A stretch of DNA of 64,000 nt from a virus: IMG/VR virus record IMGVR_UViG_3300030101_002380, positions 1 through 64,000 of that record, one strand, 5' to 3'. Below the pieces are notes generated by a model. That model saw only the letters and a list, made by a program, of their open reading frames with translations. It ran no database searches and was not told where the DNA came from. Of this stretch, positions 1-55,218 are shown in pieces. The translations under genes were made by a program, and so were the position numbers. Within the stretch, counting starts at the first letter, position 1. Each line of letters begins with the position of its first letter.

Positions 1-959
1 GCATCCTGATATTTGTTTTCCATTTGATCACCTATACCTGGACCTTTTCTACCATATGTAGCTCCAATACCTGTTTCTCTAAACTGATCTACATCAAAAT
101 CTTTTACTCTACCATACATATCCTTTCCACCAGCTCCCTCCTTCCTTCTTTGTTTATAGAAGTCCATCATACCTTCTTCTATAATCTCATCCTCAAACTC
201 TTTATTTGTTTTAAGATATTTTCCAGGATTATACATAGCTTTTAATCTATCCTTTGGATCATAAACCATATCCTGATCAGAAACATTTCTTACAGTATAT
301 TTCATATAATCCTCTTTACTACCTGGATCATAATATTGATCAGAACCAAAACTCTTTACACCTCTTTCAATAGCATCAGCTAATTCTAAAATTGGATTAT
401 CTCCTATACCAGAAAGTATAGTTGCTTGATCAGGATTTCTAAAACCTAAATCAGCTTGTTGAGCTTTTAATTGAGCTTTCTCAAGATCAGTTAGCTCATC
501 ATTTTCATCTATTGTTTTATCATCAATACCTTCATTAATATCAGTTTCATTATCTTTCCCTTCCTTATTCTCTTCTACTTCTTCATTATTCCCTTTTTGA
601 TTTTCTTCCTCTTCTTCACTTTCTGTTTTAGTATTATAACTACTTCCATTCCACATAAAAGTTTCTTGACCAGCATCTCTAGCTTGTCTAAAAGCTTGTC
701 TAAAAGTTAAACCTGTTGCAGAATCAACATTACCACTTTCTATTTTCCAATTACCTTGTGGATCTATATTAGCCATCTGAACATTACCATTTTCATCTGT
801 CCAATAAGCAGATCCATCTTCTATCACAGCATTATCTGGAATACCATCTCCATCAGAATCAGTTAAATCAACTTCACTAGATCCTTCATCACCTTGAAAT
901 ATAGGTAATGAACCACCACGCTTAGCTAGCATTAAATATGGGTTGGTAATAAAAAACAT
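1..959 (-). CDS. Putative virion cargo/ejection protein, 3'-truncated by the window edge
   Basis: Read manually (absent from ORF track because it has no stop in the window): ATG at 959, MFFITNPYLMLAKRGGSLPIFQGDEGSSEVDLTDSDGDGIPD...TFRQAFRQARDAGQETFMWNGSSYNT..., open to position 1; preceded by the late-promoter motif at 979-987. Confidence 0.75.
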   Translation of the reverse strand, partial: MFFITNPYLMLAKRGGSLPIFQGDEGSSEVDLTDSDGDGIPDNAVIEDGSAYWTDENGNVQMANIDPQGNWKIESGNVDSATGLTFRQAFRQARDAGQETFMWNGSSYNTKTESEEEEENQKGNNEEVEENKEGKDNETDINEGIDDKTIDENDELTDLEKAQLKAQQADLGFRNPDQATILSGIGDNPILELADAIERGVKSFGSDQYYDPGSKEDYMKYTVRNVSDQDMVYDPKDRLKAMYNPGKYLKTNKEFEDEIIEEGMMDFYKQRRKEGAGGKDMYGRVKDFDVDQFRETGIGATYGRKGPGIGDQMENKYQD

Positions 960-978
960 ATAATTACAGTTTACTTTA

Positions 979-987
979 ATAATATAC
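979..987 (-). promoter_or_regulatory. Putative late promoter motif GTATATTAT
   Basis: Exact copy of a 9-mer found in six intergenic gaps upstream of minus-strand operons. Confidence 0.6.
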
Positions 988-1006
988 TAAATAATCAGCA
1001 GATATG

Positions 1007-4000
1007 CTAATTATTTGATTGTTCATTCATTGCTTTTATTGTATCCAAAGTATTGCGTCCTGTTTCTTTGGAATCATTATAATACATTCTATTTAATTTA
1101 TCATACAATTTATTAGCAGATTTTTCTTGATTAGTATTTTTATATAAATCATTAACATAATCTTCATAAAATTGTACTTGCTTGTCTAAACCAAACTCAC
1201 CACCTCTTTTAAATTTTGGCCCCACTGGATAGGTATAAGAAGTACCATAAGTATTATAGTTTCCTTTAGTTATTACATTGTCATCAAAATCTTCTATATC
1301 AGATTCTATAAGTTTTACAAATTGCATATTCTTATTAACTAAATTTACATAGTTTTGTCTTGTTTGTTTACTTCCAGTAGGTCTCCATGTTAATGGTAAT
1401 CTATTAAAAATATCAAATCCTGGTGCATTTTTTTCTTCTGTAGGAATTTGAACTTGATATCTATTTGTTAATATTATCATTGTAGCAAGAGCAGATTTTT
1501 CATGATCCATTAATTCACTATTGTCAATTTTATACATATGATATTGAGTAGACATACCTTTTATAGGAACTCCATTTTCATCTCTTGGTAAAAAGACGCC
1601 ACCTTTATAACCATTATTTTCTGCTTTCTCTTTATCTTCTTTTGATAGTGTATTATAGTCTGGGTGATTTCTTACATCATCATAACCACCATTACTCCCA
1701 TTTAAAGGAATAGCAAAGTTAGTTCCAAACTTTTCATCTGCTTTAGCTAATAGCTCTCTTTCTCTAGGATCTGTAAAACCATAACCAACTCTAAGCTGTG
1801 TCCACCCTACACTTTGATCTGGATCATATGCATATCTATATTTACCTACAACAGAACCTGCACCATATTCTTTATCTGAAATAAATTGCATACCCCTTTT
1901 TCTACCTGCTAGAATAGCATCCTCTAAAGGATCATTTATATCACCCATACCACTTTCATTTCCATAAATGCCAAATGCAGTTAAAGCTATATTATTATAT
2001 AAATCACCATCTATATTTAATAAATCCATCAATGGTTTTTTATTTTTAGCTAAAGCATTTAAAAATGGTTTTGTGTTTTGATAATACTCATTACTTAAAT
2101 TATTTTCATTACCATCTGGAATACTAGAATTTTTATATGAATCTATATCAAATTCAAATTGTATAGGTCTGTAGTTTCCAAAATTTGTAGTAACATTGAT
2201 ACCTGGCCCTCCTTCTACAAACTCACCTTCATCTCCACCTTTACCTTCAAATCTTTTTGCATTTTTTACAGTTTTGTAATATCCTTCTTGTGCTCTCTCT
2301 TGATTTTCTTGTGATGTATAAAAATTTAATTTACCATTTTCATATACAAAAGAGCTACCTTCTTTCTCTGGTAATATGTATACCTCAGTACCTTCTCCTA
2401 TATCTGGATTGTCATATAAAGATTGTAGATCAACACACTTTCCATTTATACATCCAGTTGTTAATCTATTGTTTGTTCCAATACCATCATATAAATTTGA
2501 AGTCCTACCTCTTGTTACACCATGTATGGCAAGTGCTTGTTCTATTCCTGCATCACTTACTAAGTTAAATGATGGAACTAATGCACCTCTTGAATCTCCT
2601 CTATATTTTCTACCACCATCTGCATTAGCTGCAGATATTGTATACTTACCTGCACCTGTCATTCTATTACCACCATACTGATCAAAGCTTGCTTGTCTAT
2701 ATCCAGGAACATTTAATAATTCAGGAATAGTTTTAACACCATTATCTTTCATGTGCTCATTTAATTCATCTTGAGATAATTCTTTTCCATTATATGAATA
2801 TGTAGTTACAGTTTTTGTTGCTTGATCTCCTATCATTGTACCTAACAAAATATCATATGAATCTCTTGGTGCATCTTCTCCGGGATATAATAAATGCATT
2901 TTACCTTTTTGTTTATCAACAACTAAATATGGTTTAGATGCACTCTTTTTTATTTTTAATTTTTGACCTACCATAATATTATTTGGATTGTCAATATTAT
3001 TATTATAAGCAATTGAATTAGCTGTTACACCATCTCTATCTCCTGCAATTGAACTTAATGTATCACCTTGTTTAACTGTATAAGTTTCTGTACTAGATGA
3101 GGTGTCTCCATCATTCTTTGCATTAATAATGGTTTCATAATTATCATAAAGATTTATTTCATCCACTCTTTGTTTTTTTCCACCAACAGTGCTATATGTA
3201 CCATCTTCATTCCTTTCTCTAGTAACCCATACTTCATTTATTGGATTAAATTCATTTATAAAAATTGTATCTTCTGTAGTAACAGGTGACTTTGCAATCT
3301 TCTTCTGTCTTTCTGTACTTTCATTTTTAATATATTGTGCATGTTTAGGCATTATTAATTGATCACCAGGATAAATCCTGTTAATTTGATCACCTGTAAG
3401 ATTATTTAATTCTGCTACCTCAGCCAAACTTACAAAATACTTTGAAGCAATTTCACCTAGTGTATCACCTTTTTGAATTGTATATGATAAAACAGGTTCA
3501 TTAGACTCGGCTGCATTTTTAGATTTTTCATCAAAATATACAACCTCACCGGGATATATTGTTGATCTTCTATCTTTAAATTTTGGATTTAAAGCTATAA
3601 TTTCATCTACACTTTTACCATTATCACTTGCAATCTTTCCTAGATAATCTCCTTGCTGTATTGTATATGGTTCAATAGATCCTCCTGTCTGCATTACCAC
3701 AGGTTGTATCAAACCTCTATCCATTAGTTCTTTCCTAACTATACCAGATATTTCTTTACCTTCATTATATAGTTTTAATTGTTGTTTTAATCTACGTAAT
3801 TTTTTACCTATTTCACCACCCAGTTTTAGACCAAGTAATCCCTTATTAAATTTTTCTATATATTCTATTGGTGTTTTGTTTGTTTGATTTACATCATCCC
3901 CATATAAATGTGGAAATACATCAGCTAATGATTTACCATCTCTTATATGATTGCCAATATATTTTCTTGTTCCTTGTCTTCCTAACATGTTTGATAAAGC

Positions 4001-7000
4001 AGCAATCTCTAACTTAGACATACCATGTTCTACATCACTATACTCATTGTATATATCAGTACCATTTTTAATTAAACCAGGAACACCTTCTATTAAACCA
4101 TTAGCTCTATCTTTAAATATCTTTTTTTGATAGTCTAGATCTTCAGAAAAATCCTCTCTAGTACCATCATACATATTTTCAATCTCACTCCACAACTGTC
4201 CATATAAACCTGTAGCTGTAGATTCAGGATTTAACATTAACTCTCCATTCAAACTTTCTGCATATCTAATACCTTTTTCAAGATCTTCAAACTTAACCTC
4301 ATCACCATCTTGTGCTTGAAATAATGCACCACCAGTTCTTCTTTGTGATTGAGGTATATATTCATCAGATTGTCTTCTTGATTGAGGTACATAACCAGTT
4401 CCTGCAACTTCATTAGCAGTAGGTGTACTAACGTCTAGCGTAGGTGGAAGCGGTTGTGGTGGTAATTGTGTATTAGTTGTATTACCTAATAGACTATCAA
4501 TATTACTAACTGTTCTTTTAGGGATTGTTATAGTAGATTGTGGATCTACTAAGAATGGATTTTCTTCTTCTTCTTCAATTTGTGGTATCTCAATCATACC
4601 TCCAGATATTGGATCAATATTACCAAAAGGATCCATATAGTTTTCTCTCTCTATTCTTCTTGATTCTTTATCTGTAAAAGAAGTGTCTACGCCTTGTAAT
4701 TGTGGATAGTTTGGTTGATCCATTTGCCCACTTAATTCAATAAGCTTATTTAAACCAGCTTCATTAATATAACCTTTCATAGACTGTCCTGATGGACCTT
4801 GACCAGGGGTATCATAAGTATATGCACCACTGTTCATAATATTATCTGGATTATAATTTACAAACATAGTTTTACCAGATTTCCTTCCACTAAGCATTGA
4901 TCTAAATTGTTCAGCAACCTTTGGATCTAGACCTCTAGTTCTTTCAATTCTTTTAGCCATATCCTCGTCAATTGCAATTTGACCCATAGGATTTCTTGAC
5001 ATTGACTTTATAGCATAATCAGGTAATGTTCCTAACCCTATTGTAGATCCAAATACATTAGGATTATTCTGTCTAAATTCTTGAAGTCTATAATAGTCAT
5101 CAGAGAATTGTGGGGGACGTTGAGTTTGAGGTATATATTCATTACCACTGTATTGACTTAATACTTGGTTTTGTTCATCAGGTGTTAAATCATTAAATCC
5201 TGGGTATCTATTCTTTATAAATTCTAAACCTGAAGAAGCTTTTGGTAATTCTTTACCATGTCTAGCTAACATACCATCACCACCTTGATCATCCATTGCT
5301 ATTTCATTAAAGTACATTTCCATTTTAGGAAGTACCTCATCTTTCTTTTCTTGAAATATTTCTTGTTGCTCATCAATTTTAGGTTTATAAAAATTATCTA
5401 TTTCTGTTTTTAAATTACCATAAATTGAATTTAGCACACCTGTAGCTCTTTCTTTTTTACGTTTATTTTTTCCATAATAATCATCTAGTAAATCATTATA
5501 AGATGAATATCTTCTCCTCTCTTTTAAATCTTGTTGGCTTAAATTAAATATATTATTAAAAGTATCTTGTGAAATAAATGGATCTATAACATCTTTATAC
5601 CTATCTCTACTAATAGTTGAAGATGTTATATTTTCTATATATCTTATAATATTGTTACTACCAGATTCATATTCACCTATTTTATCTTCATATTCTTCTT
5701 TTATATTATTTAAATCCATATAATTATTTGTAAGGCTATTATATCCCAATGAATTTAATTGGTACTCTGATGGACCACTTGGTAAAAATAGCCCGTCCCC
5801 ATAATTATAATGTTCTAGATCTTTACTTAACAGTTTATTTAAATGTTTTTCACTAAACTTTTCTTTTGTGTTATCCCAAATACCTTTATCATATAATGCT
5901 GCTTCAGTCTCTGCTTTAATAGAACTTATTTCTGCTGGCCTCATAGCCCACTCACCATATTCATTTTTAGATGTGTCAAAATAGTTTTCACCAAATAAAT
6001 TAACAAGCCAATTTTTATACCCTGGAGCTGGCTCTTGATCAAAAACATCATCTGGATCAGTATATAAATCAGCTAAAGGTTTAAATAATGGTGATCTCAT
6101 TGTATTATATGAATGTGCATATTCATGATCTGCTATATCCCGCCAGTCATCAGGTAGAATAACAGAATCTCCAAAAGTATTTTCAGACCAACCTGATCTT
6201 TTATTCCTAGCAATTTGAACAAAATATGGATATTGAGCAAGTTCTGGAATACCTGGACCATACATTTCAGTAGATCTCATTTGCATATACGGATTTGCTG
6301 GTATATATAATCCTCTATAACCCATATATTTTTCTATACCAAATGGCAACCCATAACCAACATTTGTATTTTGTGCTGACCTACTCATAAATGGATTTAT
6401 AAAAGGAGTCTGCGTATACCTTTTTTGATAACCTTCATATATATTATTATTAATTTGACCATGTGAAACATATGGAAATACAACATGAAAATCTGGGCCT
6501 GCTGCAGTAAAATCATATTGAGCATTTATTCTTTCTGTTAATTCATCTTCAGATAATTGTTCTCCTGTTATATTAAAGACTTGTTTAGCATATCTATCTC
6601 TAAATGGTTTTGACTGTAATTTTTTTAGAAGATATTGTTGTTCTTTAGACGTATCTATCTTTTCATAATTTTGAACTACAAAATCATAAATCTCATCAAG
6701 TGTGTAATCTATTCCCTGTGTATCTATAGCACCTGCTTTATTTATTGTAAACTTTGGTTCTTGAACTTCATTACCATCTTGAAATAGAGGAGGATAAGAA
6801 TGGAAGAGAAAAGGAGAAGGAAGTAAGTATGGAGGAGGAAGTAAGTTTCTAATTTTTCTAGTTGTTCTTTTTACTTTTGTATTAAATGATAATACATCAT
6901 CATATAAGTTTGCTAAATTAGTTCTCATTGGATTTAACTTACCATTAGCGTCATAAACTTCAAAGTCTTTCCCATTAAAACCTCCCTTTATAACATATCC

Positions 7001-7333
7001 CTCCATAAGATTATTTAAGATAGGATTATCATGTGATGGTAATTTATATCCTTCTTTTTCATATTGTTTATACTTAACCATAGCATCATTATATATAGAT
7101 TTCATTTGATCCATAAAACCTCCACCATCTTGTGCTAATGGAACTTCAAAGACAGAACTACCAGGAAATGTATAATTAGCACCCGGCATCATAACTCTAC
7201 TATTACCTAAGTTATCCATACCAAACACAGGAAAGTCTACACCTTCCATAGTTATATTACCTGATGGTATTACATTATAAGGATTATTTCTATCCTTACT
7301 ATTCCTTTTATATCCGTCTTTACTAAATTTCAT
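1007..7333 (-). CDS. Giant multidomain virion cargo protein: HExxH zincin-like, lysozyme/SLT-like, 3x LysM, L,D-transpeptidase-like, second lysozyme-like domain
   Basis: 2108 aa; HEYAH; RYAESLNG..NPESTATGLYGQ; YTIQQGDYLGKIA, YTIQKGDTLGEIA, YTVKQGDTLSSIA (LysM); LVVDKQKGKMHL..LAIHG..RLTTGCIN (YkuD-type H..[ST]xGC); GNESGMG..SVGWTQ; lies directly downstream of tail genes like crAss-like cargo genes. Confidence 0.8.
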   Translation of the reverse strand: MKFSKDGYKRNSKDRNNPYNVIPSGNITMEGVDFPVFGMDNLGNSRVMMPGANYTFPGSSVFEVPLAQDGGGFMDQMKSIYNDAMVKYKQYEKEGYKLPSHDNPILNNLMEGYVIKGGFNGKDFEVYDANGKLNPMRTNLANLYDDVLSFNTKVKRTTRKIRNLLPPPYLLPSPFLFHSYPPLFQDGNEVQEPKFTINKAGAIDTQGIDYTLDEIYDFVVQNYEKIDTSKEQQYLLKKLQSKPFRDRYAKQVFNITGEQLSEDELTERINAQYDFTAAGPDFHVVFPYVSHGQINNNIYEGYQKRYTQTPFINPFMSRSAQNTNVGYGLPFGIEKYMGYRGLYIPANPYMQMRSTEMYGPGIPELAQYPYFVQIARNKRSGWSENTFGDSVILPDDWRDIADHEYAHSYNTMRSPLFKPLADLYTDPDDVFDQEPAPGYKNWLVNLFGENYFDTSKNEYGEWAMRPAEISSIKAETEAALYDKGIWDNTKEKFSEKHLNKLLSKDLEHYNYGDGLFLPSGPSEYQLNSLGYNSLTNNYMDLNNIKEEYEDKIGEYESGSNNIIRYIENITSSTISRDRYKDVIDPFISQDTFNNIFNLSQQDLKERRRYSSYNDLLDDYYGKNKRKKERATGVLNSIYGNLKTEIDNFYKPKIDEQQEIFQEKKDEVLPKMEMYFNEIAMDDQGGDGMLARHGKELPKASSGLEFIKNRYPGFNDLTPDEQNQVLSQYSGNEYIPQTQRPPQFSDDYYRLQEFRQNNPNVFGSTIGLGTLPDYAIKSMSRNPMGQIAIDEDMAKRIERTRGLDPKVAEQFRSMLSGRKSGKTMFVNYNPDNIMNSGAYTYDTPGQGPSGQSMKGYINEAGLNKLIELSGQMDQPNYPQLQGVDTSFTDKESRRIERENYMDPFGNIDPISGGMIEIPQIEEEEENPFLVDPQSTITIPKRTVSNIDSLLGNTTNTQLPPQPLPPTLDVSTPTANEVAGTGYVPQSRRQSDEYIPQSQRRTGGALFQAQDGDEVKFEDLEKGIRYAESLNGELMLNPESTATGLYGQLWSEIENMYDGTREDFSEDLDYQKKIFKDRANGLIEGVPGLIKNGTDIYNEYSDVEHGMSKLEIAALSNMLGRQGTRKYIGNHIRDGKSLADVFPHLYGDDVNQTNKTPIEYIEKFNKGLLGLKLGGEIGKKLRRLKQQLKLYNEGKEISGIVRKELMDRGLIQPVVMQTGGSIEPYTIQQGDYLGKIASDNGKSVDEIIALNPKFKDRRSTIYPGEVVYFDEKSKNAAESNEPVLSYTIQKGDTLGEIASKYFVSLAEVAELNNLTGDQINRIYPGDQLIMPKHAQYIKNESTERQKKIAKSPVTTEDTIFINEFNPINEVWVTRERNEDGTYSTVGGKKQRVDEINLYDNYETIINAKNDGDTSSSTETYTVKQGDTLSSIAGDRDGVTANSIAYNNNIDNPNNIMVGQKLKIKKSASKPYLVVDKQKGKMHLLYPGEDAPRDSYDILLGTMIGDQATKTVTTYSYNGKELSQDELNEHMKDNGVKTIPELLNVPGYRQASFDQYGGNRMTGAGKYTISAANADGGRKYRGDSRGALVPSFNLVSDAGIEQALAIHGVTRGRTSNLYDGIGTNNRLTTGCINGKCVDLQSLYDNPDIGEGTEVYILPEKEGSSFVYENGKLNFYTSQENQERAQEGYYKTVKNAKRFEGKGGDEGEFVEGGPGINVTTNFGNYRPIQFEFDIDSYKNSSIPDGNENNLSNEYYQNTKPFLNALAKNKKPLMDLLNIDGDLYNNIALTAFGIYGNESGMGDINDPLEDAILAGRKRGMQFISDKEYGAGSVVGKYRYAYDPDQSVGWTQLRVGYGFTDPRERELLAKADEKFGTNFAIPLNGSNGGYDDVRNHPDYNTLSKEDKEKAENNGYKGGVFLPRDENGVPIKGMSTQYHMYKIDNSELMDHEKSALATMIILTNRYQVQIPTEEKNAPGFDIFNRLPLTWRPTGSKQTRQNYVNLVNKNMQFVKLIESDIEDFDDNVITKGNYNTYGTSYTYPVGPKFKRGGEFGLDKQVQFYEDYVNDLYKNTNQEKSANKLYDKLNRMYYNDSKETGRNTLDTIKAMNEQSNN

Positions 7334-10300
7334 TATCTAAATGATACATTAAGTTTACTATTGTTTAATTTTAATAACATCTTTCTGTTTCCAGAAACTC
7401 TCTTTCTTAGAATTACAGCATTCCAGTAATGTCTAAACTTCTTACGTTGGAATAATGGTTTTGCTAAGTTTATATTAGCTTGATTTAACTCTCTAATATA
7501 ACCGTTCAATTGTGTTATAAATATTGGCTCACTTGTATTAGGATTAAATTCTCCTCTATCAGCAGTAACATCCCAAAACATATTAAATCTATATTTCTGT
7601 TCTTCTTTACTATATAGTATTTGAATATCATTAGGTGTCACAACTGGGAACTGAGTTATCAATGGTGCATTATTTTTAGGACTCAAATTTAATGATAATA
7701 ATCCAGATACTTGCTCTGTATTATGAAGTATTGCTTCATCAAAATTATAATCAAGATCATGGAATCTATCACCACAATCATTCTCTAAGTTACCTCTATA
7801 GATATAAGACTCTAACTGATACTCAATACTTCTAACAGTATTAACAACTTGACCTACAGATTCTATAAGTTCTACCTCCCATGGATAATCTATATTGTAA
7901 TAATTTGCAAATAAATCACATCTAGCATTGTGTTTCCAAATAGCTCCTAATTCATTTTGTGCTGGCACAGCAGTTAGTAAAGGAGTGCACTCAGTATACA
8001 TACATGTAATATCAAATGTATTTGGGTCAAGGAATGAAGTATTATCATCAAATTCTTTAATACAGTCACCTGGTGAAGCTGGCGGATAATTATTAGATGG
8101 ATCATTAAATACCATATCTGTACCTTCTGGACAAGCACAAGATCTTGTTGAATCTTCTGATAGTGGTATAGTTAAACCATCTACACATAAATACTTGCTT
8201 ACATTTACATCATTAGCTGGACTACCATATTCTGTGCCAGCTAACTGTCTTGTAACTTGAATCTTAAAAAAGATATATTCCCAAGATTGAGTAGCTGTAA
8301 ATTCATAATCATATACTACCCATTGATCTATATTAGTAACGTCTGGAGATCTCCATAAAAGTTCAGATGCACCTAAAGTATCAGCTCCATCATAACCAAA
8401 TTGACTACCTCTATAGTTTTGACCTTGAAATCCAGGAGGCTCAGATCCACCCCATATTTCTAATGTAGGGGCAAAGTTTGTAAATGATGCTGTGCTAGGA
8501 TGACTACTAGCTTGTGCTAATGCAACAGAACCTACTAATAGTGTATTAGGGGCTAATGAATTTGGTGAACCATTTCCATTTACAAGCAGTTGCCATACAC
8601 CCTCTTGGTAGTATGTAGGATTAGCACCCTGTCCATCAAAACCACCTAGACCATTACAACCAGAATCAGGATCTCCTGATTGAAGCATTCCTATAAAAGC
8701 ATCTCCTTCATATGGTTGTATTGAGTTAACAGGTGGTAAATTAGTTGGACATGTATCAGGTGACATGACTCCATTAACAAGATCACTTTGATTCTGACAC
8801 AAATAACCATTATTCCAAGGGCTTGGTGTCTGGGACCATCCATAATTATCACCTTGTTGTAAGTTAAATCCTGGATTAGCAAATTGAGATGTACCAAAAC
8901 CTACCACAGGTTCAGTGTCAGTTGCAATAATTGGATCTATAAAACCTACAAAACAACATTGCTCAACACCATTAACTATCTGTGGTGTAGACCCTGGTGG
9001 GCATCCTGGTGGATCACATTGATCTGTTATTGGATTATATGTATAACCTGGTGGACAATAAGGTGTATCTAATGTAATATTTTTTGTTGTAAAGAAATGA
9101 TTCAAACTTGGTATTGTTAAATCAGGATGCCAATCATGAAATGATATCCATGCTCTTGCTTTAGGATCATAACTTACCGTCCATGATACATCTTTAAAAT
9201 ATTGTTCATCTGATAATTCAATAGGTACTGTAGCATCAAAAAATGTAACTGGCTCATATACTTCACAACGGCATTCATAATCATTTACACTATTTCCTGT
9301 AGTTCCTGGTAACTGTGTTAATCCTGGATTACATGGATTAAGTACTGTTCCAGGATCACAAAAATATTCAGGTATATCAAAAATAAATTCATCTGCAATA
9401 ATATCTGCTACCTGTGCACCTTGACCAGGCCCAGCAGAAAATGCATTATTCATAGTTTGAACCATACATCCTACTACATTTTGTGGTGCATTAGCAATAT
9501 TAGGAACATTAGCTGCTGTGCATTGTACTATATATGTTTCTACTCCTTGATTCCATACATCATTTTGAATATTTGTTGTACATCCAAAACAATTTGCGCC
9601 AGTACAAGCACTACCACCACTGTCTGCATCAGTTAACACAATCATAATTCTTCTATAACCTGCTTGTCCTGATCTATCACCTAAACTTGAACCTCCAAAA
9701 TTATCTAATATTGCCATACCTTGGATAATAGCATCATCATATTCATCTCCAGCACCATCTAGAACTGGTTGACCAAAGCCAAACGTTGGTCCATTATTAG
9801 TTGTTATAGAATTTAATAATGTTGAGTCAGTAGTCATAGGTGCCACAGTACCTCTTGATCCTGGAGGACCACTACAATTTCCACAAGCAGCAGTAAATGG
9901 ATCAGCTGTCCATACTCCTAATCCAATTTGAACAGAGTTTTGAGCAGTAGGATTATTAGTTAAACTACCATTTAGTAGAGAATCAATTTGTTGTACAAAC
10001 TGTGTAGCAAATGCATTTCCTGTTTGATGACCTTGTGTGCCGGCTCCAGCTGTTGATCCATTACTACCTGACAAATCTAAAACAATAGCAATATCAATTG
10101 GATTATAACCTGGTACAATACGCTCTGAAGCATCAAAAATTTCTATTTTTTCACACTCTTGTCCTACAGGATTTGAAGGATCATATGTGTATCCATTAGG
10201 ACAACATGGTACAGGAGGAGTTCCATTACACTGAGTTAAGTTATATACAAAACCATTACATGCATCAAAATTTATGCAATCTGGGTTTAATGCTTCATAA

Positions 10301-41947: not shown

Positions 41948-42257
41948 TTATTATATCTCTAATTTCAGCGCATTTCTCATACTCTTCAGTATCTACGAAA
42001 TATGCCATCATATTTTCTAACGTATCCATGGTTGGCTCCTCACCAGGCTCATGGGCACATATTGCAGACATTGCGTTTGGGTCCTCAGACTTCTTATCTA
42101 GCAAACTCTCCAATGTATGAGTACCAGTTATAATCTTAAATGAGTTCCTAAACGCTGCGTCTATTATTAATTCCTCTACATGCATCCTTTGTGAGAGAGT
42201 TAATCCATCCATGCCATCCATTCCTTCCATGTCATCAAATGAGTCAAAGTTGTCCAT
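41910..42257 (-). CDS. Hypothetical protein with C-terminal UVR-like motif
   Basis: Acidic 115 aa; EEYEKCAEIRD resembles the uvrB/uvrC helical motif. Confidence 0.55.
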   Translation of the reverse strand: MDNFDSFDDMEGMDGMDGLTLSQRMHVEELIIDAAFRNSFKIITGTHTLESLLDKKSEDPNAMSAICAHEPGEEPTMDTLENMMAYFVDTEEYEKCAEIRDIINVRIQSKVRQSS

Positions 42258-42312
42258 CTATTTTATTTTTTAAGTGTTTAACAAACCTTTCTATAAAGGA
42301 TCTATGTATACT

Positions 42313-42321
42313 ATAATATAC
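42313..42321 (-). promoter_or_regulatory. Putative late promoter motif GTATATTAT
   Basis: Exact copy at the head of the whole minus-strand block. Confidence 0.6.
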
Positions 42322-42453
42322 TAAAAATTTTTGGCCTATGGAAATTTTGTGTGTTTTAAGTTGTGAAAGGGTTTATACAATCAGCTCCCCGTCTTATCCA
42401 CGGGCAACACCCACCCCCTATATCAAAGTGTGGGTATACTAAAACCAAAAAAT

Positions 42454-42747
42454 ATGACAAAGTCAATTTTTTTCCACAAGATAGTAAATAATACTATCAT
42501 AGTAAAAACTGCCGTGCTAGGAACTAAAAAGTCCACTATCAACGGTGTCACTGTCTATGACAGAGAGCAAGGCTCCGTGACCTACGGTCTACTATGCCTT
42601 ATAGATGAATCAGGCAATTCCCTTGATCCATCTACTCTTGGTCTCAAGAAGAACCAAGAGATTAAAGGCTTCCAGTTGTCATCTAATCCGGTCCTTGACC
42701 AGGAAACAGATGAACCAACTGGTATGTACTGGGCAGAATCTATCTAA
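42454..42747 (+). CDS. Hypothetical protein, first gene of the plus-strand block
   Basis: ORF track 42430-42747; probable ATG 42454 after AAAACCAA leader; followed by a hairpin at 42734-42754. Confidence 0.55.
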   Translation: MTKSIFFHKIVNNTIIVKTAVLGTKKSTINGVTVYDREQGSVTYGLLCLIDESGNSLDPSTLGLKKNQEIKGFQLSSNPVLDQETDEPTGMYWAESI

Positions 42748-42766
42748 GATTCTGTTCTGTACTTGC

Positions 42767-43539
42767 TGTAACTCTGCATAGCTACGTTACATTAACACTA
42801 CTATGCACAGTTACACTAACACTTAATGCAATTGAGTGTATAAAAAATTAATTGTGTGCATTAAATTGTGTGTGTGAGGCCTTATTACCCACATATTACC
42901 ACTTTAATCCACAATACAAACTGTTAATCACAGTAATATATAATATAGCTATAAATGCAGCTTACAGGGGTACAGCTGTGAGTATACAAACCAAAGGGTA
43001 TTTACATTAGGAATAATGTTTAAACGTGTTAAGTCCCTAGAACTCTTTAAATGCACACGCTGATGAATCAGGCAATCCCAGAGTACTTGTTAGGTATACC
43101 ATTTGTTATTGTGTCTCTTCTCTCTCTATAGGATAAGAGACATAGTAACCGCAAGCTTATAAAATAATTTAACAGAGTAAACTGTTTAAAACAAAAATGA
43201 GTATTCATACGGAGTTCATACTAAGAGTGTAATCAGACTGCAGATAACTGTTACATGCTCACCTACGTATTGTTTCTATGGAGAATACTCATCATAATAT
43301 AAAGAGAGTTGGTTAGTATACATAACCACCATCCTGATACAAGTAAGGCAGTGAAATACAGAAATAAGACTAGGATCTGTACTCTCTTTTATATTCTAAT
43401 AAGGTACAGGTATTTGCTTGATGATGTAAATAGTTCCTGCTAAGTTGATGTTATCCAGCCTTATTTATAATGTATTTCGTTAGAAGTAGGAAGGGTGTTC
43501 TTTTTTGTTATATGTTTGTAACATTCCTTTCTACTTCTA
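42767..43539 (+). ncRNA. Array of long imperfect stem-loops, candidate structured ncRNA cluster
   Basis: Stems at 42767-42815, 43105-43149, 43197-43292, 43296-43395, 43398-43465, 43481-43539; several G-U pairs favour plus-strand RNA; no ORF of 60 aa or more. Confidence 0.45.
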
Positions 43540-43577
43540 CAACAACTCAAACTTAATTATTAATCAAAACTAAAACT

Positions 43578-43847
43578 ATGAATAGATTAAAAAAACTTAT
43601 CCTACCTGTAAAGATATTTGCAGCTTGGGTATTAGCAAATATACTAACAATATTATCTTGGATTACATTATATCCACTATTAGAGTGGGCAAATATAATT
43701 AACCATCCTTCTCAACATCCATATTGGTTAATACCAGTATTAGTGATATATCTTATTGCATCACTAGACTGGTTGTTTAATTTTAAACATATGTATAACC
43801 AATGGGTACAGCATAGATTATGGACTAGAAAACATCGTGGAAAATGA
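43578..43847 (+). CDS. Small two-TM membrane protein
   Basis: 89 aa with two hydrophobic segments. Confidence 0.6.
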   Translation: MNRLKKLILPVKIFAAWVLANILTILSWITLYPLLEWANIINHPSQHPYWLIPVLVIYLIASLDWLFNFKHMYNQWVQHRLWTRKHRGK

Positions 43848-44499: not shown

Positions 44500-44573
44500 G
44501 CACCCATAGCTCAATTGGATAGAGCAACAGCCTTCTAAGCTGTAGGTTGTAGGTTCAAGTCCTACTGGGTGTA
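44500..44573 (+). tRNA. tRNA-Arg(TCT)
   Basis: GCACCCA/TGGGTGT acceptor stem, D-arm GCTC..GAGC, anticodon arm ACAGC-CTTCTAA-GCTGT, T-loop GTTCAAGTC; CCA not encoded; preceded by a 14-bp hairpin at 44460-44494. Confidence 0.95.
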
Positions 44574-44732: not shown

Positions 44733-45160
44733 AACTTACTGTACCTCAATTAAAAGTATTGTTATCTGACTTGTTTAATCAAGAAGCTGGTAAATCAGCA
44801 GATGCAGTACTACATATGTTGACTGATGTACAGATAGAATTATTAATGCACATTATGTCTACACCAGATTATATACTTTTAAATAAGAATCAAAAGATTA
44901 AGTTTAAACCTGATAAGTATACATTTGAGAATGTAAACATAGATGTACTACAAGATCTAGGATTTGTAGATGAAGAAGGTTATCATTACGGCAAGATAAC
45001 TGGTGATACATCTTATGGTAGTGATTTTAATCCTACTTACTATAAGATGCACGTAAGATGTGTTACTTTACGTAACAATAAACCTATATCTACAGACATG
45101 GAAGTATATACTAAAGATATTGTAGCAATACCTTTAGACAAATGGAAAGGTTTGGAATAG
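44717..45160 (+). CDS. Hypothetical protein
   Basis: ORF track 44690-45160; probable start ATG 44717. Confidence 0.6.
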   Translation: MERSIKLTVPQLKVLLSDLFNQEAGKSADAVLHMLTDVQIELLMHIMSTPDYILLNKNQKIKFKPDKYTFENVNIDVLQDLGFVDEEGYHYGKITGDTSYGSDFNPTYYKMHVRCVTLRNNKPISTDMEVYTKDIVAIPLDKWKGLE

Positions 45161-45384
45161 TTTCACATGAAGTTATATCTGATCCAAAGCTGTCTCTGAT
45201 AGCAAAGGCTGTATATAGTGTATACTGTATACACGCCAACAAGAGTCGTACTTGTTTCCCAAACAATAGTACTGTAGCTGACATGTTAAATGTTGGTTAT
45301 AGTACTGTTAGCAGGGGTATAAAAGAACTGAAAGATGCAAAATATATTAAGAGAGAAGGTAAAATAATAAGGCTATTAAAATAG
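45142..45384 (+). CDS. Helix-turn-helix DNA-binding protein
   Basis: DPKLSLIAKAVY..CFPNNSTVADMLNVGYSTVSRGIKELKDAKYI, typical phage replication-initiator-type HTH. Confidence 0.75.
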   Translation: MERFGIVSHEVISDPKLSLIAKAVYSVYCIHANKSRTCFPNNSTVADMLNVGYSTVSRGIKELKDAKYIKREGKIIRLLK

Positions 45385-45465
45385 ATAGCTATACTTCTCT
45401 TAACAAATATTGTTGTATCAGCAAGAGTATGTATTATCATTGATAATTTTTAATACTTTTGTTAA

Positions 45466-47369: not shown

Positions 47370-48460
47370 GAGAAGAAGTACAAAAGCAGGCATTAGATCT
47401 TGCAGTAAATAATAAAAGATGCGGTCTTGGTATATCTATGGGTGTTGGTAAAACTAGAATAGCTATTCAACACTTACAGAAAAACTATGATGCGTTTATA
47501 AGAGCACTAGTTGTTATACCCAAGCTAACTGTAATGGATGCTTGGATGGAAGAACTAATGAAAATGGGTTTATCTGACAAGTTAATAGGTCATATACAAT
47601 TTGTAACATATCTATCTTTAAATAAAAAGAACCCAAATGATTATGATATAGTATATTTAGATGAATGTCATAGTTTATTAGATAGTCATAGTGCATTTTT
47701 ATCAGAGTTTAAAGGTAAGATCCTTGGTCTTACTGGTACACCACCAAGAAAAGGCACAGAGAAATACAAAATGGTCAATAAGTATTGTCCTATTGTATAT
47801 AATTATAGTGTTGATGAAGCTACAGATAGTAATATACTTAATGATTACAAGATTATTGTGCATGAGTTACAACTATCTAAACTTAAAACACATAAAAAGA
47901 AAGCTAAGAATGGTGGTTTCTGGTATACATCAGAAAAGGCAGACTATGATTACTTTACATCACGTGTAGGTGATGCACAGACACAGAAGCAAAAGCAATT
48001 TGCATCTATAATGCGTATGAAAGCTATGATGGATTATCCAACAAAGGAATCATATGCAAAAGGTCTACTTAAAAACATAGATCAAAAGTGTCTTGTATTT
48101 GCTAATACAAAGAAACAAGCAGATAGAATGTGTGATCATAGTTATCACTCTAGTAATAAGAACTCTGAAGAGAACTTAGAACTATTTAGTGATGGTAGAA
48201 TAAATAAGATGTCTTGTGTATTACAACTTAGTGAAGGTATATCTATACCAGATCTAAAACAAGGTATCATAATGCATGCATACGGTAATGAAAGAAAGAC
48301 TTCACAACGTATAGGTAGACTACTTAGGTTGCTACCATATCAACAGTCTATTTGTCATATACTATGTTATGCAAATACAATAGATGTTAAATGGGTTAAC
48401 TCAGCGTTATCTACATTTGACCAAGACAAGGTACATTTTTATAACCCTTTAGATAATTAA
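47366..48460 (+). CDS. Superfamily 2 helicase
   Basis: SMGVGKT, LDECH, LTGTP, LSEGISIP, QRIGRLLR. Confidence 0.9.
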   Translation: MREEVQKQALDLAVNNKRCGLGISMGVGKTRIAIQHLQKNYDAFIRALVVIPKLTVMDAWMEELMKMGLSDKLIGHIQFVTYLSLNKKNPNDYDIVYLDECHSLLDSHSAFLSEFKGKILGLTGTPPRKGTEKYKMVNKYCPIVYNYSVDEATDSNILNDYKIIVHELQLSKLKTHKKKAKNGGFWYTSEKADYDYFTSRVGDAQTQKQKQFASIMRMKAMMDYPTKESYAKGLLKNIDQKCLVFANTKKQADRMCDHSYHSSNKNSEENLELFSDGRINKMSCVLQLSEGISIPDLKQGIIMHAYGNERKTSQRIGRLLRLLPYQQSICHILCYANTIDVKWVNSALSTFDQDKVHFYNPLDN

Positions 48461-53437: not shown

Positions 53438-54139
53438 ATGAATGAAGTAAAAAGTAAAGTTATGTTTAATACAAAAGACATGTCTGCTGGATCAAGCAGA
53501 CCAAAACCAGTAATGAGTCCAGGTAATCAAGTTATTAGAATTAATTCTATCACATTTGATAAGACACCATATGACTCTGAAGCGTACAATATTACTCTAC
53601 ATGTAGAAACAGAGCCTATTAAAGGAGACTTTGAAGGTTTTTATAAAGACATGGATGACCAATCTAAAGGTAGATATGAAGGCCAGGTTGGCAGAGTTAG
53701 AATGACTCCATATCCATATAAAGATGCAACACTTCCAAGTGGACGTGAGGTATCTAGAGATCAAGAAGTATTAAAGTCTATGATCTTTTTATCTGAGCAA
53801 TTAGGTAAAAGAGATGCACTAGATGCTATTGAGGCAGACACAATAGAAGCTTTTATGACAAAAGCATCAGGATTATTTGCTAATAGTGATTTCTTTAATG
53901 CTTGTATAGGTTCAAGACAATGGGAAAATAAAGAAGGTTATATTAATGATGATCTTTATTTACCTAGACCATCTAAGGATGGAGTTCCTGTAGAGGCTAT
54001 GGATACTGATGCTACTAAGTCTAGACTTATGACATATGATAGGTCTACACATCTTAGAGAGATTGTTAAGAAAGAAACACCAGCTGCTGATTCTTCATTT
54101 GAAGGAACAAAAGGTAGTGGATCTGACTTTGAACTGTAA
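53438..54139 (+). CDS. Putative ssDNA-binding protein, partner of the Sak4-like ATPase
   Basis: 233 aa directly after the AAA ATPase; acidic/aromatic tail SDFEL. Confidence 0.5.
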   Translation: MNEVKSKVMFNTKDMSAGSSRPKPVMSPGNQVIRINSITFDKTPYDSEAYNITLHVETEPIKGDFEGFYKDMDDQSKGRYEGQVGRVRMTPYPYKDATLPSGREVSRDQEVLKSMIFLSEQLGKRDALDAIEADTIEAFMTKASGLFANSDFFNACIGSRQWENKEGYINDDLYLPRPSKDGVPVEAMDTDATKSRLMTYDRSTHLREIVKKETPAADSSFEGTKGSGSDFEL

Positions 54140-54246
54140 ATAATAAAAGGGGTGCTGAATGGTGTAATGTAGTTCCAGACGTGGTCATACCAGCTTAATT
54201 GAGGAGAAAACACTTGCGTTGTCCAACCCTCAGCCCTAATATTATT

Positions 54247-55218
54247 ATGATAAGTACAAAGAATCTTGTATCTGATGAAAGCAAAGTACCAAGTGCTTGG
54301 GTATTTCAATACTATCTGGATTTACCAGAGAGTTTAACTGGACAAAATGTTAGAATACATTCTATATTTAATCCCGGTGAAAGGACACCAAGCATGTGGG
54401 TCTTTGTTGATAAGAGTACAAGGCAGTATAAATTTAAAGATTTCTCAACAGGAAACTATGGTAACAAGATTGATCTTATTAAAGAGCTTTTCAGTATAGA
54501 CTACTCAAAAGCTGTATTTAAAATGATTAATGATTACAATAAGTTTGCATTAGAAAAAGGTAAATATAACATAGAGGTTAAGGATCATCCTAGATATAAG
54601 GTTGATTATTGCAGTGAACGCCTATGGAATAGATTGGATCAGCAATACTGGTTACAGTTTAACATTGGTAAGTTAACATTAGAGAAATATAATGTAAAAC
54701 CTCTTGAATATTATACTATGTCAAAAGATGATCCTGATGGTGTTAAGACTATTAAGATGGAGTATCCAAAGTTATATGGCTACTTTGACAAGGATGGTAA
54801 AGTTTATAAAATATACCAACCGTCACAAAAAAAATATAAATTCATAAAGATCAATGCACATCTGCAAGGCTTTGATCAGTTAGAATATAATCAACCTTAT
54901 TTGGTTATATGTTCTTCTCTGAAAGATGCAATGTGTCTTAGTCAGTTTGGTTATAACCTTGAGGTTATTGCTCCTGACTCAGAGAATACAGTAATCAAAC
55001 CGTATATAATCCAAAATCTTAAGAATAAATATAAAAAAGTTATAACTTTGTTTGATAATGATGTTGCCGGACATGCAGCTGTAAATAAATATTTACTGCA
55101 TTTTAACATAAAAGGCACATGGTTAGACAGTAGTAAAGACATTGCTGATCTTGTAAAAGAAAAAGGTTTTGATGCTGCTCATAGAGAAATTAAAGTTAAA
55201 CTTAAAAGTATATTATGA
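54247..55218 (+). CDS. DNA primase (TOPRIM)
   Basis: ERTPSM..FKDFSTG, CSSLKDAM, LFDND..G, KDIAD; start ATG 54247. Confidence 0.82.
   Translation: MISTKNLVSDESKVPSAWVFQYYLDLPESLTGQNVRIHSIFNPGERTPSMWVFVDKSTRQYKFKDFSTGNYGNKIDLIKELFSIDYSKAVFKMINDYNKFALEKGKYNIEVKDHPRYKVDYCSERLWNRLDQQYWLQFNIGKLTLEKYNVKPLEYYTMSKDDPDGVKTIKMEYPKLYGYFDKDGKVYKIYQPSQKKYKFIKINAHLQGFDQLEYNQPYLVICSSLKDAMCLSQFGYNLEVIAPDSENTVIKPYIIQNLKNKYKKVITLFDNDVAGHAAVNKYLLHFNIKGTWLDSSKDIADLVKEKGFDAAHREIKVKLKSIL

Follow-up and report, generated by a model that had tools for sequence, protein, structure and literature searches.

The ORF-free stretch at the head of the rightward arm

The DNA analyzed here, referred to as the window, comprises the first 64 kb of the 113.6-kb record of an uncultured virus. 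Its crassvirus muzzle protein and its crAss-type portal and terminase families place the source phage among the distant marine crAss-like phages, and the terminase shares ~25% identity with its counterparts in gut crAss-like and Flavobacterium phages. Genes are directed leftward up to about position 42257 and rightward from 42454, with the GC skew turning there, and this strand switch together with the GC-skew minimum coincides with the ORF-free stretch that is the subject of the present analysis (Table 1). Beyond the window, an ORF of 5052 aa contains DFDID, a motif resembling the catalytic one found in the virion RNA polymerase of phi14:2. On this motif alone, its product is a candidate virion RNA polymerase; searches of PDB and PHROG with the DFDID-bearing segment gave no match.

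The first rightward gene is kept at 67 to 98% DNA identity in four related loci (L009, L052, L068, and L170) and had no match in Pfam or PHROG; a search for relatives of a neighboring 182-aa protein gave none. Well over 100 related loci, here designated by L numbers, were collected by a terminase search and a motif scan. The leader of the gene at 43578-43847 is identical in L170, 92% identical in L173, and found also in L109 and L116, where it comes directly after M4 or M5.

The first-pass annotation of the window had described about 830 nt without a long ORF that hold at least six inverted repeats, of which it listed six, the last four being separated by 3, 2, and 15 nt. All of this was confirmed: the longest ORF of the stretch has no more than 52 aa, the six repeats are present at the positions claimed, and the gaps are as given. 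The mismatches that it had read as G-U pairs on the plus strand are indeed G-T in M2 (two) and M6 (two), and a scan for hairpins followed by a T-run gave 0 sites, in agreement with the claimed absence of terminator U-tails. Since no unit has a terminator tail, cotranscription with the next gene is plausible. The further claim that the stretch as a whole is an array of stem-enclosed units holds for the four-unit tail (43197-43539), whereas stems 1 and 2 are not members of it. The closing stems enclose 19 to 85 nt, and M3 to M5 are branched folds of 70 to 100 nt.

Table 1. Features of the ORF-free stretch and its borders (window coordinates)
Feature	Position	Strand	Remark
First rightward gene, 97 aa	42454..42747	+	ATG at 42454; left edge of the non-coding stretch
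ORF-free stretch	42748-43577		Between the genes 42454-42747 and 43578-43847
M1 (stem 1), 15-bp hairpin with one C-C mismatch	42767..42815	+	Right after the stop codon
Left part	42840-43192		Conserved single-copy control region (blocks A and B, element C)
Block A	42840..42955	.	Conserved control block; alignment of 40 distinct relatives
Insert between blocks A and B, 145 nt	42956..43100	.	Lineage-specific
Block B, contains M2	43103..43168	+	Invariant 19-mer and semi-conserved TAGTAACCGCAA
M2 (stem 2), 15-bp hairpin	43105-43149	+	Inside block B
Element C, TAACAGAGTAAACTGTTTAAA, hairpin motif AACAG/CTGTT, 21-23 nt	43170..43190	+	Single copy in own genome
Right part	43197-43539		Four end-to-end units (M3, M4, M5, M6)
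M3, 96-nt unit closed by ATGAGTATTC/GAATACTCAT	43197..43292	+	Copy in L147
M4	43296..43395	+	Member of an RNA motif family
M4 P1, 9 bp	43301-43309/43382-43390	+	Never varies in the family
M4 P2, 6 bp	43310-43315/43323-43328	+	Covarying
M4 P3, variable inserted hairpin, 25-45 nt	Within M4	+	Family alignment
M4 P4, ACAGA/UCUGU	43358-43362/43376-43380	+	Never varies in the family
M5, portable unit, closing stem AATAAGG/CCTTATT (43398-43465)	43396..43471	+	Copies in relatives
M6, long hairpin: 15 bp including 2 G-U, internal loop, 7 bp	43481..43539	+	38 nt before ATG
Leader AACTCAAAC... of gene 43578-43847	43544..43577	+	Conserved in relatives

The control region upstream of the modules

M1 is lineage-specific, i.e., it was found in near relatives only (93 to 99% identity), and lies upstream of the conserved control block; it carries two direct copies of the 13-mer GTTACAYTAACAC, at 42786 and 42810. 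Block A consists of a GT-rich run, three ACCAC(A) repeats that are ~10 nt (about one helical turn) apart, and a small hairpin (42920-42924/42930-42934), and it includes the invariant ATATAGCTA at 42943-42951. The hairpin covaries among the relatives, in which its arms read ACTGT/ACAGT, ATGGT/ACCAT, GTGG/CCAC, or ACGG/CCGT. The 19-mer of block B, TCTCTCTCTATAGGATAAG (43119-43137), which is followed by the semi-conserved element, occurs once in the own genome and once in each of 62 related viral contigs. The spacing from ATATAGCTA to block B is exactly 56 nt in 11 relatives and 167 nt in the window, where the insert has no homologue, even in L109 and L170, which both share its flanks. Part of this insert (43062-43079) is a 17/18 copy of a segment of the first rightward gene (42604-42621). 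An ORF starts 53 to 76 nt downstream of block B in 12 relatives, and on account of these starts and the fixed 56-nt spacing, blocks A and B can be regarded as one composite signal that heads the rightward arm. Element C occurs in one or two copies in the relatives, all on the plus strand and 0 to 170 nt before an ATG, and its variant AGCAG/CTGCT retains the pairing; a C-like AACAGAGGACACTG is located 6 to 8 nt downstream of M4 in four contexts. The most likely role of these three sequence-conserved elements is that of start signals for the rightward arm, i.e., a promoter or a 5' leader, perhaps with origin functions as well.

Further assignments within this region were considered and discarded. 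The duplex formed by the M2 arms of the relatives has an energy of -8.0 kcal/mol vs -6.9 kcal/mol after cross-pairing, with the window being an extreme case (-19.4 kcal/mol). M2 was rejected as a conserved hairpin because the relatives' own arms pair hardly better than swapped arms, and by this comparison stem 2 in block B is specific to the lineage of the window. The similarity of block B to CTCnCTATAGG, a T7/SP6-type promoter sequence, was regarded as a coincidence, given that the motif is single-copy and that no T7-like polymerase family was matched in the genome; the control genomes gave no match to this family either. Sigma-70-like sites in the region were not above shuffles. DnaA-box-like 9-mers around block B in the relatives (24 upstream vs 11 downstream) are mildly enriched, which was judged to be weak.

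Portable units and the M4 family

Folding statistics do not separate the leader from neighboring coding sequence. Taken alone, M1 (z of -3.97), M2 (-6.1), and M6 (-6.06) fold far below their shuffles, whereas no clear gain was obtained for M3 (-1.7), M4 (-1.7), and M5 (-1.15), so that the structure suspected in all six stood out from shuffled sequence in only M1, M2, and M6. The z of the whole stretch is about -1.9 to -2.1, and 4 of the 18 coding controls of the same genome, which reach a z of -5.4, fold better. The homologous leaders of 20 non-redundant relatives all have a negative z on the plus strand (mean of -2.75), and 17 of them fold better on the plus than on the minus strand; the coding sequence adjoining these leaders has a mean z of -1.9 and the same strand bias. 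Fold z was thus rejected as proof of structure, and folding energy is not the evidence used here, because the coding controls are not separated from the leader. Three perfect helices (9 bp or longer, within 125 nt) were counted vs 0.64 expected, a modest enrichment that was reached by 4 of 100 shuffles. It is the alignment with relatives, not the folding energy, that shows the units to be real.

The segments that the window shares with other phages comprise 43196-43302 (M3), 43300-43396 (M4), and 43396-43471 (M5). The borders of these shared stretches fall no more than a few bases from the closing stems, which independently validates the segmentation into units. M3, M4, and M5 are found in other marine crAss-like phages with 73 to 100% identity, unrelated flanks, and a different order, and each of block B, element C, and M3 to M6 is present in one copy in the 113.6-kb record. 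The copy of M3 in L147 (1090-1185) is 100% identical and has unrelated flanks; its neighbors are a hairpin plus T-run, terminator-like by eye, and a C-like element. L147 has its own blocks A and B and C-like element, and M3 precedes the C-like element there but follows element C in the window. M5 occurs in L154/L178, L170, L173, and L181 as copies with 98 to 100% identity and in L180 as a variant with 91% identity and a shortened inner loop, the flanks being unrelated throughout. Wherever an upstream ORF is present in the sequence, the M5 copies are in sense orientation to the nearest one. Since the copies of M3 and M5 are almost identical, they provide no covariation signal. For M6, no relatives were found in IMG/VR by its exact arms or among the relatives' loci compared. 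A match of L146 to the M3 arms and classes of 46 to 72 nt that match the M5 pattern were rejected as chance matches; those checked lie inside long ORFs or match at the imposed ends only.

The reshuffling of units is most evident from the comparison with the closest relatives, in which homology is lost after block B and regained at the leader of the next gene. Sequence identity between L170 and the window is 97.6% up to and including block A and 92.5% from the leader on. The order in L170 is block A, 56 nt, block B, M5, a stem-closed unit X, M4, leader, a small extra gene, leader, and gene, vs block A, insert, block B, element C, M3, M4, M5, M6, leader, and gene in the window. Modular shuffling of this kind was seen between the window and L170, L109, L116, and L147. 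In addition, 17 of the 62 contigs with block B end less than 1 kb from it, and three of these 17, with lengths of 78 to 102 kb, end within about 400 nt of it, which fits a population-level variability that breaks assemblies. In other relatives, the same leader slot is occupied by unrelated stem-enclosed, branched elements. One of them, with a length of 260 nt, is 99% paired and has four covarying pairs (reached by 7 of 500 shuffles), a hairpin-tip insertion, and G-U pairs on the plus strand.

The M4 family comprises 16 distinct sequences from about 29 contigs. P1 was fixed by the search pattern, whereas P2 lies outside the pattern-fixed positions; one extra copy, retrieved with a covariance model and without the pattern (L195, 10133-10255), has the same P1 sequence. 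Because P1 is invariant, the closing stem is neither supported nor contradicted by the family, and the same holds for the likewise invariant P4. P2 is 100% paired in the 16 sequences, with double-sided changes in three of its six pairs (10 cells), whereas slid controls gave 0 to 1 covarying pairs. Among its cells are nine with G-U and none with A-C, which is the pattern expected of a plus-strand RNA. Within P3, CCUG..CAG is replaced by CCCG..CGG in three sequences, i.e., with both sides changed. The P2 loop is self-complementary (GUGCAC; GUAUAC in the window), and the junction bases are invariant. The first-pass annotation had proposed two inner helices for the branched units, and the one formed by TGGTTA/TAACCA is confirmed by covariation; the ATCCT/AGGAT helix was rejected because a competing P3 pairing breaks it in the L188 type. 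A pseudoknot composed of ATCCT/AGGAT and its equivalents was abandoned as well, as its register varies by subtype and the helix is broken in the L188 type. Covariation is solid for one helix of one module only, namely, M4 P2.

A conserved reading frame within M4 is ruled out by an indel that distinguishes the window from L116 and disrupts every frame of the unit. All 16 of 16 M4 copies are in sense orientation to both neighboring ORFs, and the next ATG is located 32 to 75 nt downstream of M4 in seven contexts. As for known RNA families, the sole match of Rfam 15 in the window is a tRNA-Arg at 44500-44573, and nothing meaningful was found in 42250-43650 at E values up to 5. A set of 17 loci had no match at the gathering threshold, and eight loci with M4 or M5 copies gave only a weak Hammerhead_3 elsewhere in L188; no family matches the modules. 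A search of 185,579 bacterial and archaeal genomes with the M4 pattern revealed no true copy. The bacterial and archaeal matches scored 14 to 21 bits vs 75 to 118 bits for family members, and six bacterial matches were rejected as chance on the same grounds as the spurious M3 and M5 matches. Hence, there is no sign of a host RNA that M4 mimics.

Interpretation and comparison with known systems

Overall, the stretch is probably the non-coding head of the rightward early/replication arm, composed of a control region and a chain of structured RNA modules that punctuate the early RNA. M3 to M6 would be part of a plus-strand transcript in which they form the leader of the next gene, and its own terminal helix would let each unit fold regardless of its neighbors. 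Such folding autonomy would explain the free gain, loss, and reordering of units in related phages. As elements of processing, insulation, or stability, the modules might punctuate the early polycistronic RNA; alternatively, they might be cis-regulators a few dozen bases upstream of a start codon. A job in cis is most likely, given that this is the usual place of the modules and that terminator tails are absent. The borders and portability of the units, the sense orientation of M4 and M5, and the conserved structure of M4 are shown by the sequences, whereas transcription, processing, and function of the modules are what we infer. The conserved junction bases of M4 look over-specific for a generic stability hairpin, and the term "punctuation" may thus be too modest.

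A more specific role of M4, e.g., as a ribozyme, a sensor, or a dimerizing RNA, is hinted at by its invariant junction bases and self-complementary P2 loop. In the most far-reaching version, M4, with its compact multi-helix junction, would be the first member of a new functional RNA class of crAss-like phages and would punctuate early transcripts either as a self-cleaving ribozyme or as a cis-regulator that senses a ligand or a protein. M3 and M5 would represent additional classes of this type, and the leaders would form a combinatorial library of RNA devices. We regard this version as distinctly unlikely.

The first-pass annotation had suggested a precursor from which several small RNAs are released, and it was right in so far as the units are discrete and non-coding, three of the four occur elsewhere as independent modules, and one shows covariation and a G-U bias pointing to plus-strand RNA. 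Small RNAs that are cut from the early leader and act in trans, whether as decoys, as mimics of antitoxins or repeats, or as regulators that target the host or the phage, are nevertheless rather unlikely. They would be in line with the conservation of M3 and M5 as whole units (98 to 100% across unrelated contexts), the conserved unpaired bases and self-complementary P2 loop of M4, a fast turnover as in accessory early loci, and the phi14:2 intergenic RNAs, which outlast other declining early RNAs. However, the bacterial and archaeal genomes contain no true copy of M4, no Rfam family was matched, and the frequent position of M4 and M5 a few dozen bases upstream of a start codon is a better fit to a role in cis.

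The units could also be selfish or neutral DNA, i.e., miniature inverted-repeat elements or scars of cassette recombination that have no function as RNA. Inverted repeats do bound the units, identical copies are found in unrelated flanks, the unit order differs between near-identical phages, and the 17 of 62 contigs that end less than 1 kb from block B are a sign of variability at the population level; the near-identical copies of M3 and M5 could reflect the recent spread of a selfish element. Such an origin is highly unlikely in view of the single copy of each unit per genome, the sense orientation of M4 in 16 of 16 copies and of M5 relative to the upstream ORF, and the M3 and M5 junctions, at which no target-site duplication was seen. 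Moreover, the pairing of M4 P2 survives double changes and includes G-U, but never A-C.

Hairpins that act as DNA, i.e., parts of a replication origin, single-strand initiation sites, or extruded promoters for an injected RNA polymerase as in N4, are very improbable. In their favor, the stretch lies at the strand switch and GC-skew minimum, the ACCAC repeats of block A are phased and accompanied by a dyad, and the phi14:2 virion RNA polymerase strongly prefers single-stranded DNA, with no early promoter motif being known (bioRxiv 10.1101/2020.03.07.982082), but such a role may apply to blocks A, B, and C and not to M3 to M6, which differ between phages with 97% identical flanks, are mutually unrelated, and have interiors of 19 to 85 nt vs the 3-nt loops of N4, and the DnaA-box-like 9-mers upstream of block B are merely mildly enriched (24 vs 11). 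The N4-type promoters that had been offered as an alternative for the modules were dismissed, as the modules have unique sequences, long interiors, and one copy per genome.

The crAss-like phages, with their injected RNA polymerase and very abundant early non-coding RNAs, are among the most abundant viruses known. The locus offers three invariant single-copy signals as candidate start signals. Natural variation defines the borders and orientation of the RNA units and, for M4, also the fold, and M3, M4, and M5 are short enough for direct assays of cleavage, probing, and binding. The reshuffling in near-identical phages suggests that early regions evolve by swapping RNA modules as well as genes.

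Similar arrangements have been reported for other phages. The rightward arm of phi14:2 starts with two long intergenic regions whose rightward transcription exceeds that of most genes, and their RNAs are present from the first time point and persistent (Drobysheva et al., bioRxiv 10.1101/2020.03.07.982082). The window shares with phi14:2 a long ORF-free stretch near the start of a crAss-like rightward early arm, and closing stems in the phi14:2 region (about 2905-4601) number 6 vs 2.0 expected. On the basis of this precedent and the enrichment of closing stems there, 43197-43577 can be read as the putative structured leader of an early rightward RNA. No modular anatomy has been described for phi14:2; positions 1-9000 of NC_021806 (phi14:2) had no match to the motifs of blocks A and B or to the M4 models (R1 and R2). 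The promoter-early stem-loop (PeSL) cassettes in the hyperplastic early regions of T4-type phages (Arbiol et al. 2010, PMC2839356) are comparable as small non-coding stem-loop units at sites where segments are inserted, deleted, or exchanged among related phages. They differ in being many near-identical copies per genome with a sigma-70-like promoter and a terminator, whereas the units of the window are single-copy, mutually unrelated, and branched in their interiors, without a promoter or terminator consensus.

The RNase III sites of T7 are irregular hairpins between early cistrons that have no U-tails and about two turns of imperfect duplex. M6 (15 + 7 bp) and M2 (15 bp), both put at about 20 bp interrupted by an internal loop and without U-tails, would fit such duplexes if transcribed, but M3 to M5 are branched, and T7 sites are not portable between contexts. 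The promoters of the N4 virion RNA polymerase are stems of 5 to 7 bp with 3-nt loops that share their sequence and occur in several copies. An injected RNA polymerase (here suggested by the DFDID motif) and hairpins heading the early region would be common to N4 and the phage studied here, whereas the modules are long, mutually unrelated, and single-copy; only the small hairpin of block A or element C is comparable. Correia/NEMIS elements, i.e., intergenic units of 60 to 150 bp with inverted-repeat ends, are cotranscribed with genes and form an RNA hairpin that RNase III can cleave. The units of the window are likewise bounded by terminal inverted repeats, but the multiple copies, the two orientations, and the target duplications that characterize Correia/NEMIS elements were not seen for the window units. 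A further parallel is the catalogue of 10,006 candidate structured RNAs in IMG/VR viruses (Fremin, Bhatt, Kyrpides 2023, PMC10690425), which consists of covariation-based motifs from the same type of data, many of them located upstream of genes.

Candidate start signal and variation where the rightward arm begins

In dozens of marine crAss-like phages, the rightward arm is headed by a composite, single-copy signal that consists of the invariant motifs of the conserved control blocks A and B (ATATAGCTA and TCTCTCTCTATAGGATAAG, respectively); ATATAGCTA is the upstream one, and in 11 relatives it is separated from TCTCTCTCTATAGGATAAG by exactly 56 nt. This position and the single copy make the pair, judged by sequence, a concrete candidate for the early start signal of the arm. 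Population variation seems to have a hotspot around block B: many assemblies, i.e., the contigs behind L087, L140, L119, L088, L043, L102, L125, L101, L105, and L135, end no more than a few hundred bases before or after it, contigs of 78 to 102 kb among them. One copy of an 18-nt direct repeat (17/18 identical) lies within the first rightward gene and the other within the lineage-specific insert that separates block A from block B; the repeat may be a relic of the origin of this insert.

Coordinates of the features (~, approximate)
Feature	Source	Position	Strand
Block A motif	window	42943-42951	
Block B motif	window	43119-43137	
18-nt repeat, gene copy	window	42604-42621	
18-nt repeat, insert copy	window	43062-43079	
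M3 mini-ORF	window	43198-43233	
Folded segment, z = -5.4	window	~45000-45400	
Folded segment, z = -4.1	window	~48000-48400	
Folded segment, z = -4.1	window	~54000-54400	
M4-family tandem pair	L195	10133-10255, 10361-10482	
Hammerhead_3 match	L188	884-946	
Unit X	L170	6472-6523	
260-nt element	L088	188-446	
260-nt element	L111	213-474	
260-nt element	L120	567-836	minus
260-nt element	L112	5871-6152	
5052-aa ORF	own genome (outside window)	87227-102385	minus

Structured elements in the window and its relatives

The stem-closed unit M3 begins, immediately downstream of element C and its A-rich end, with an 11-codon mini-ORF (ATG...TAA), which is also present in the M3 copy of locus L147; these copies are identical and are therefore no measure of conservation. 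Three 400-nt segments of the rightward arm fold much better than shuffled controls, and by this z-score also better than the flagged ORF-free stretch.

The M4 RNA family occurs in one phage (L195) as a tandem pair of diverged copies about 105 nt apart. In another phage (L188), likewise distinct from that of the window, an M4 copy is preceded, at a distance of about 830 nt, by a sequence that matches Hammerhead_3 weakly and below threshold (27 bits, E = 0.036). Between M5 and M4 of L170, a stem-closed unit X is found, whose closing stem is CCACAATGAC/GTTATTGTGG and whose interior recurs in part in L094. In other relatives, the same leader slot is occupied by a branched, stem-enclosed non-coding element of 260 nt with 99% pairing and four covarying pairs, which had no match in Rfam; its L112 copy carries a 22-nt insertion at a hairpin tip.

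Giant ORF with a polymerase-like motif

An ORF of 5052 aa, adjoined by ORFs of 1880, 1192, 1585, and 968 aa, contains the motif ADFDIDK at residue 3983. The 2053-aa segment around it had no PDB or PHROG match; the motif itself resembles the catalytic DFDID of the virion RNA polymerase of the crAss-like phage phi14:2.
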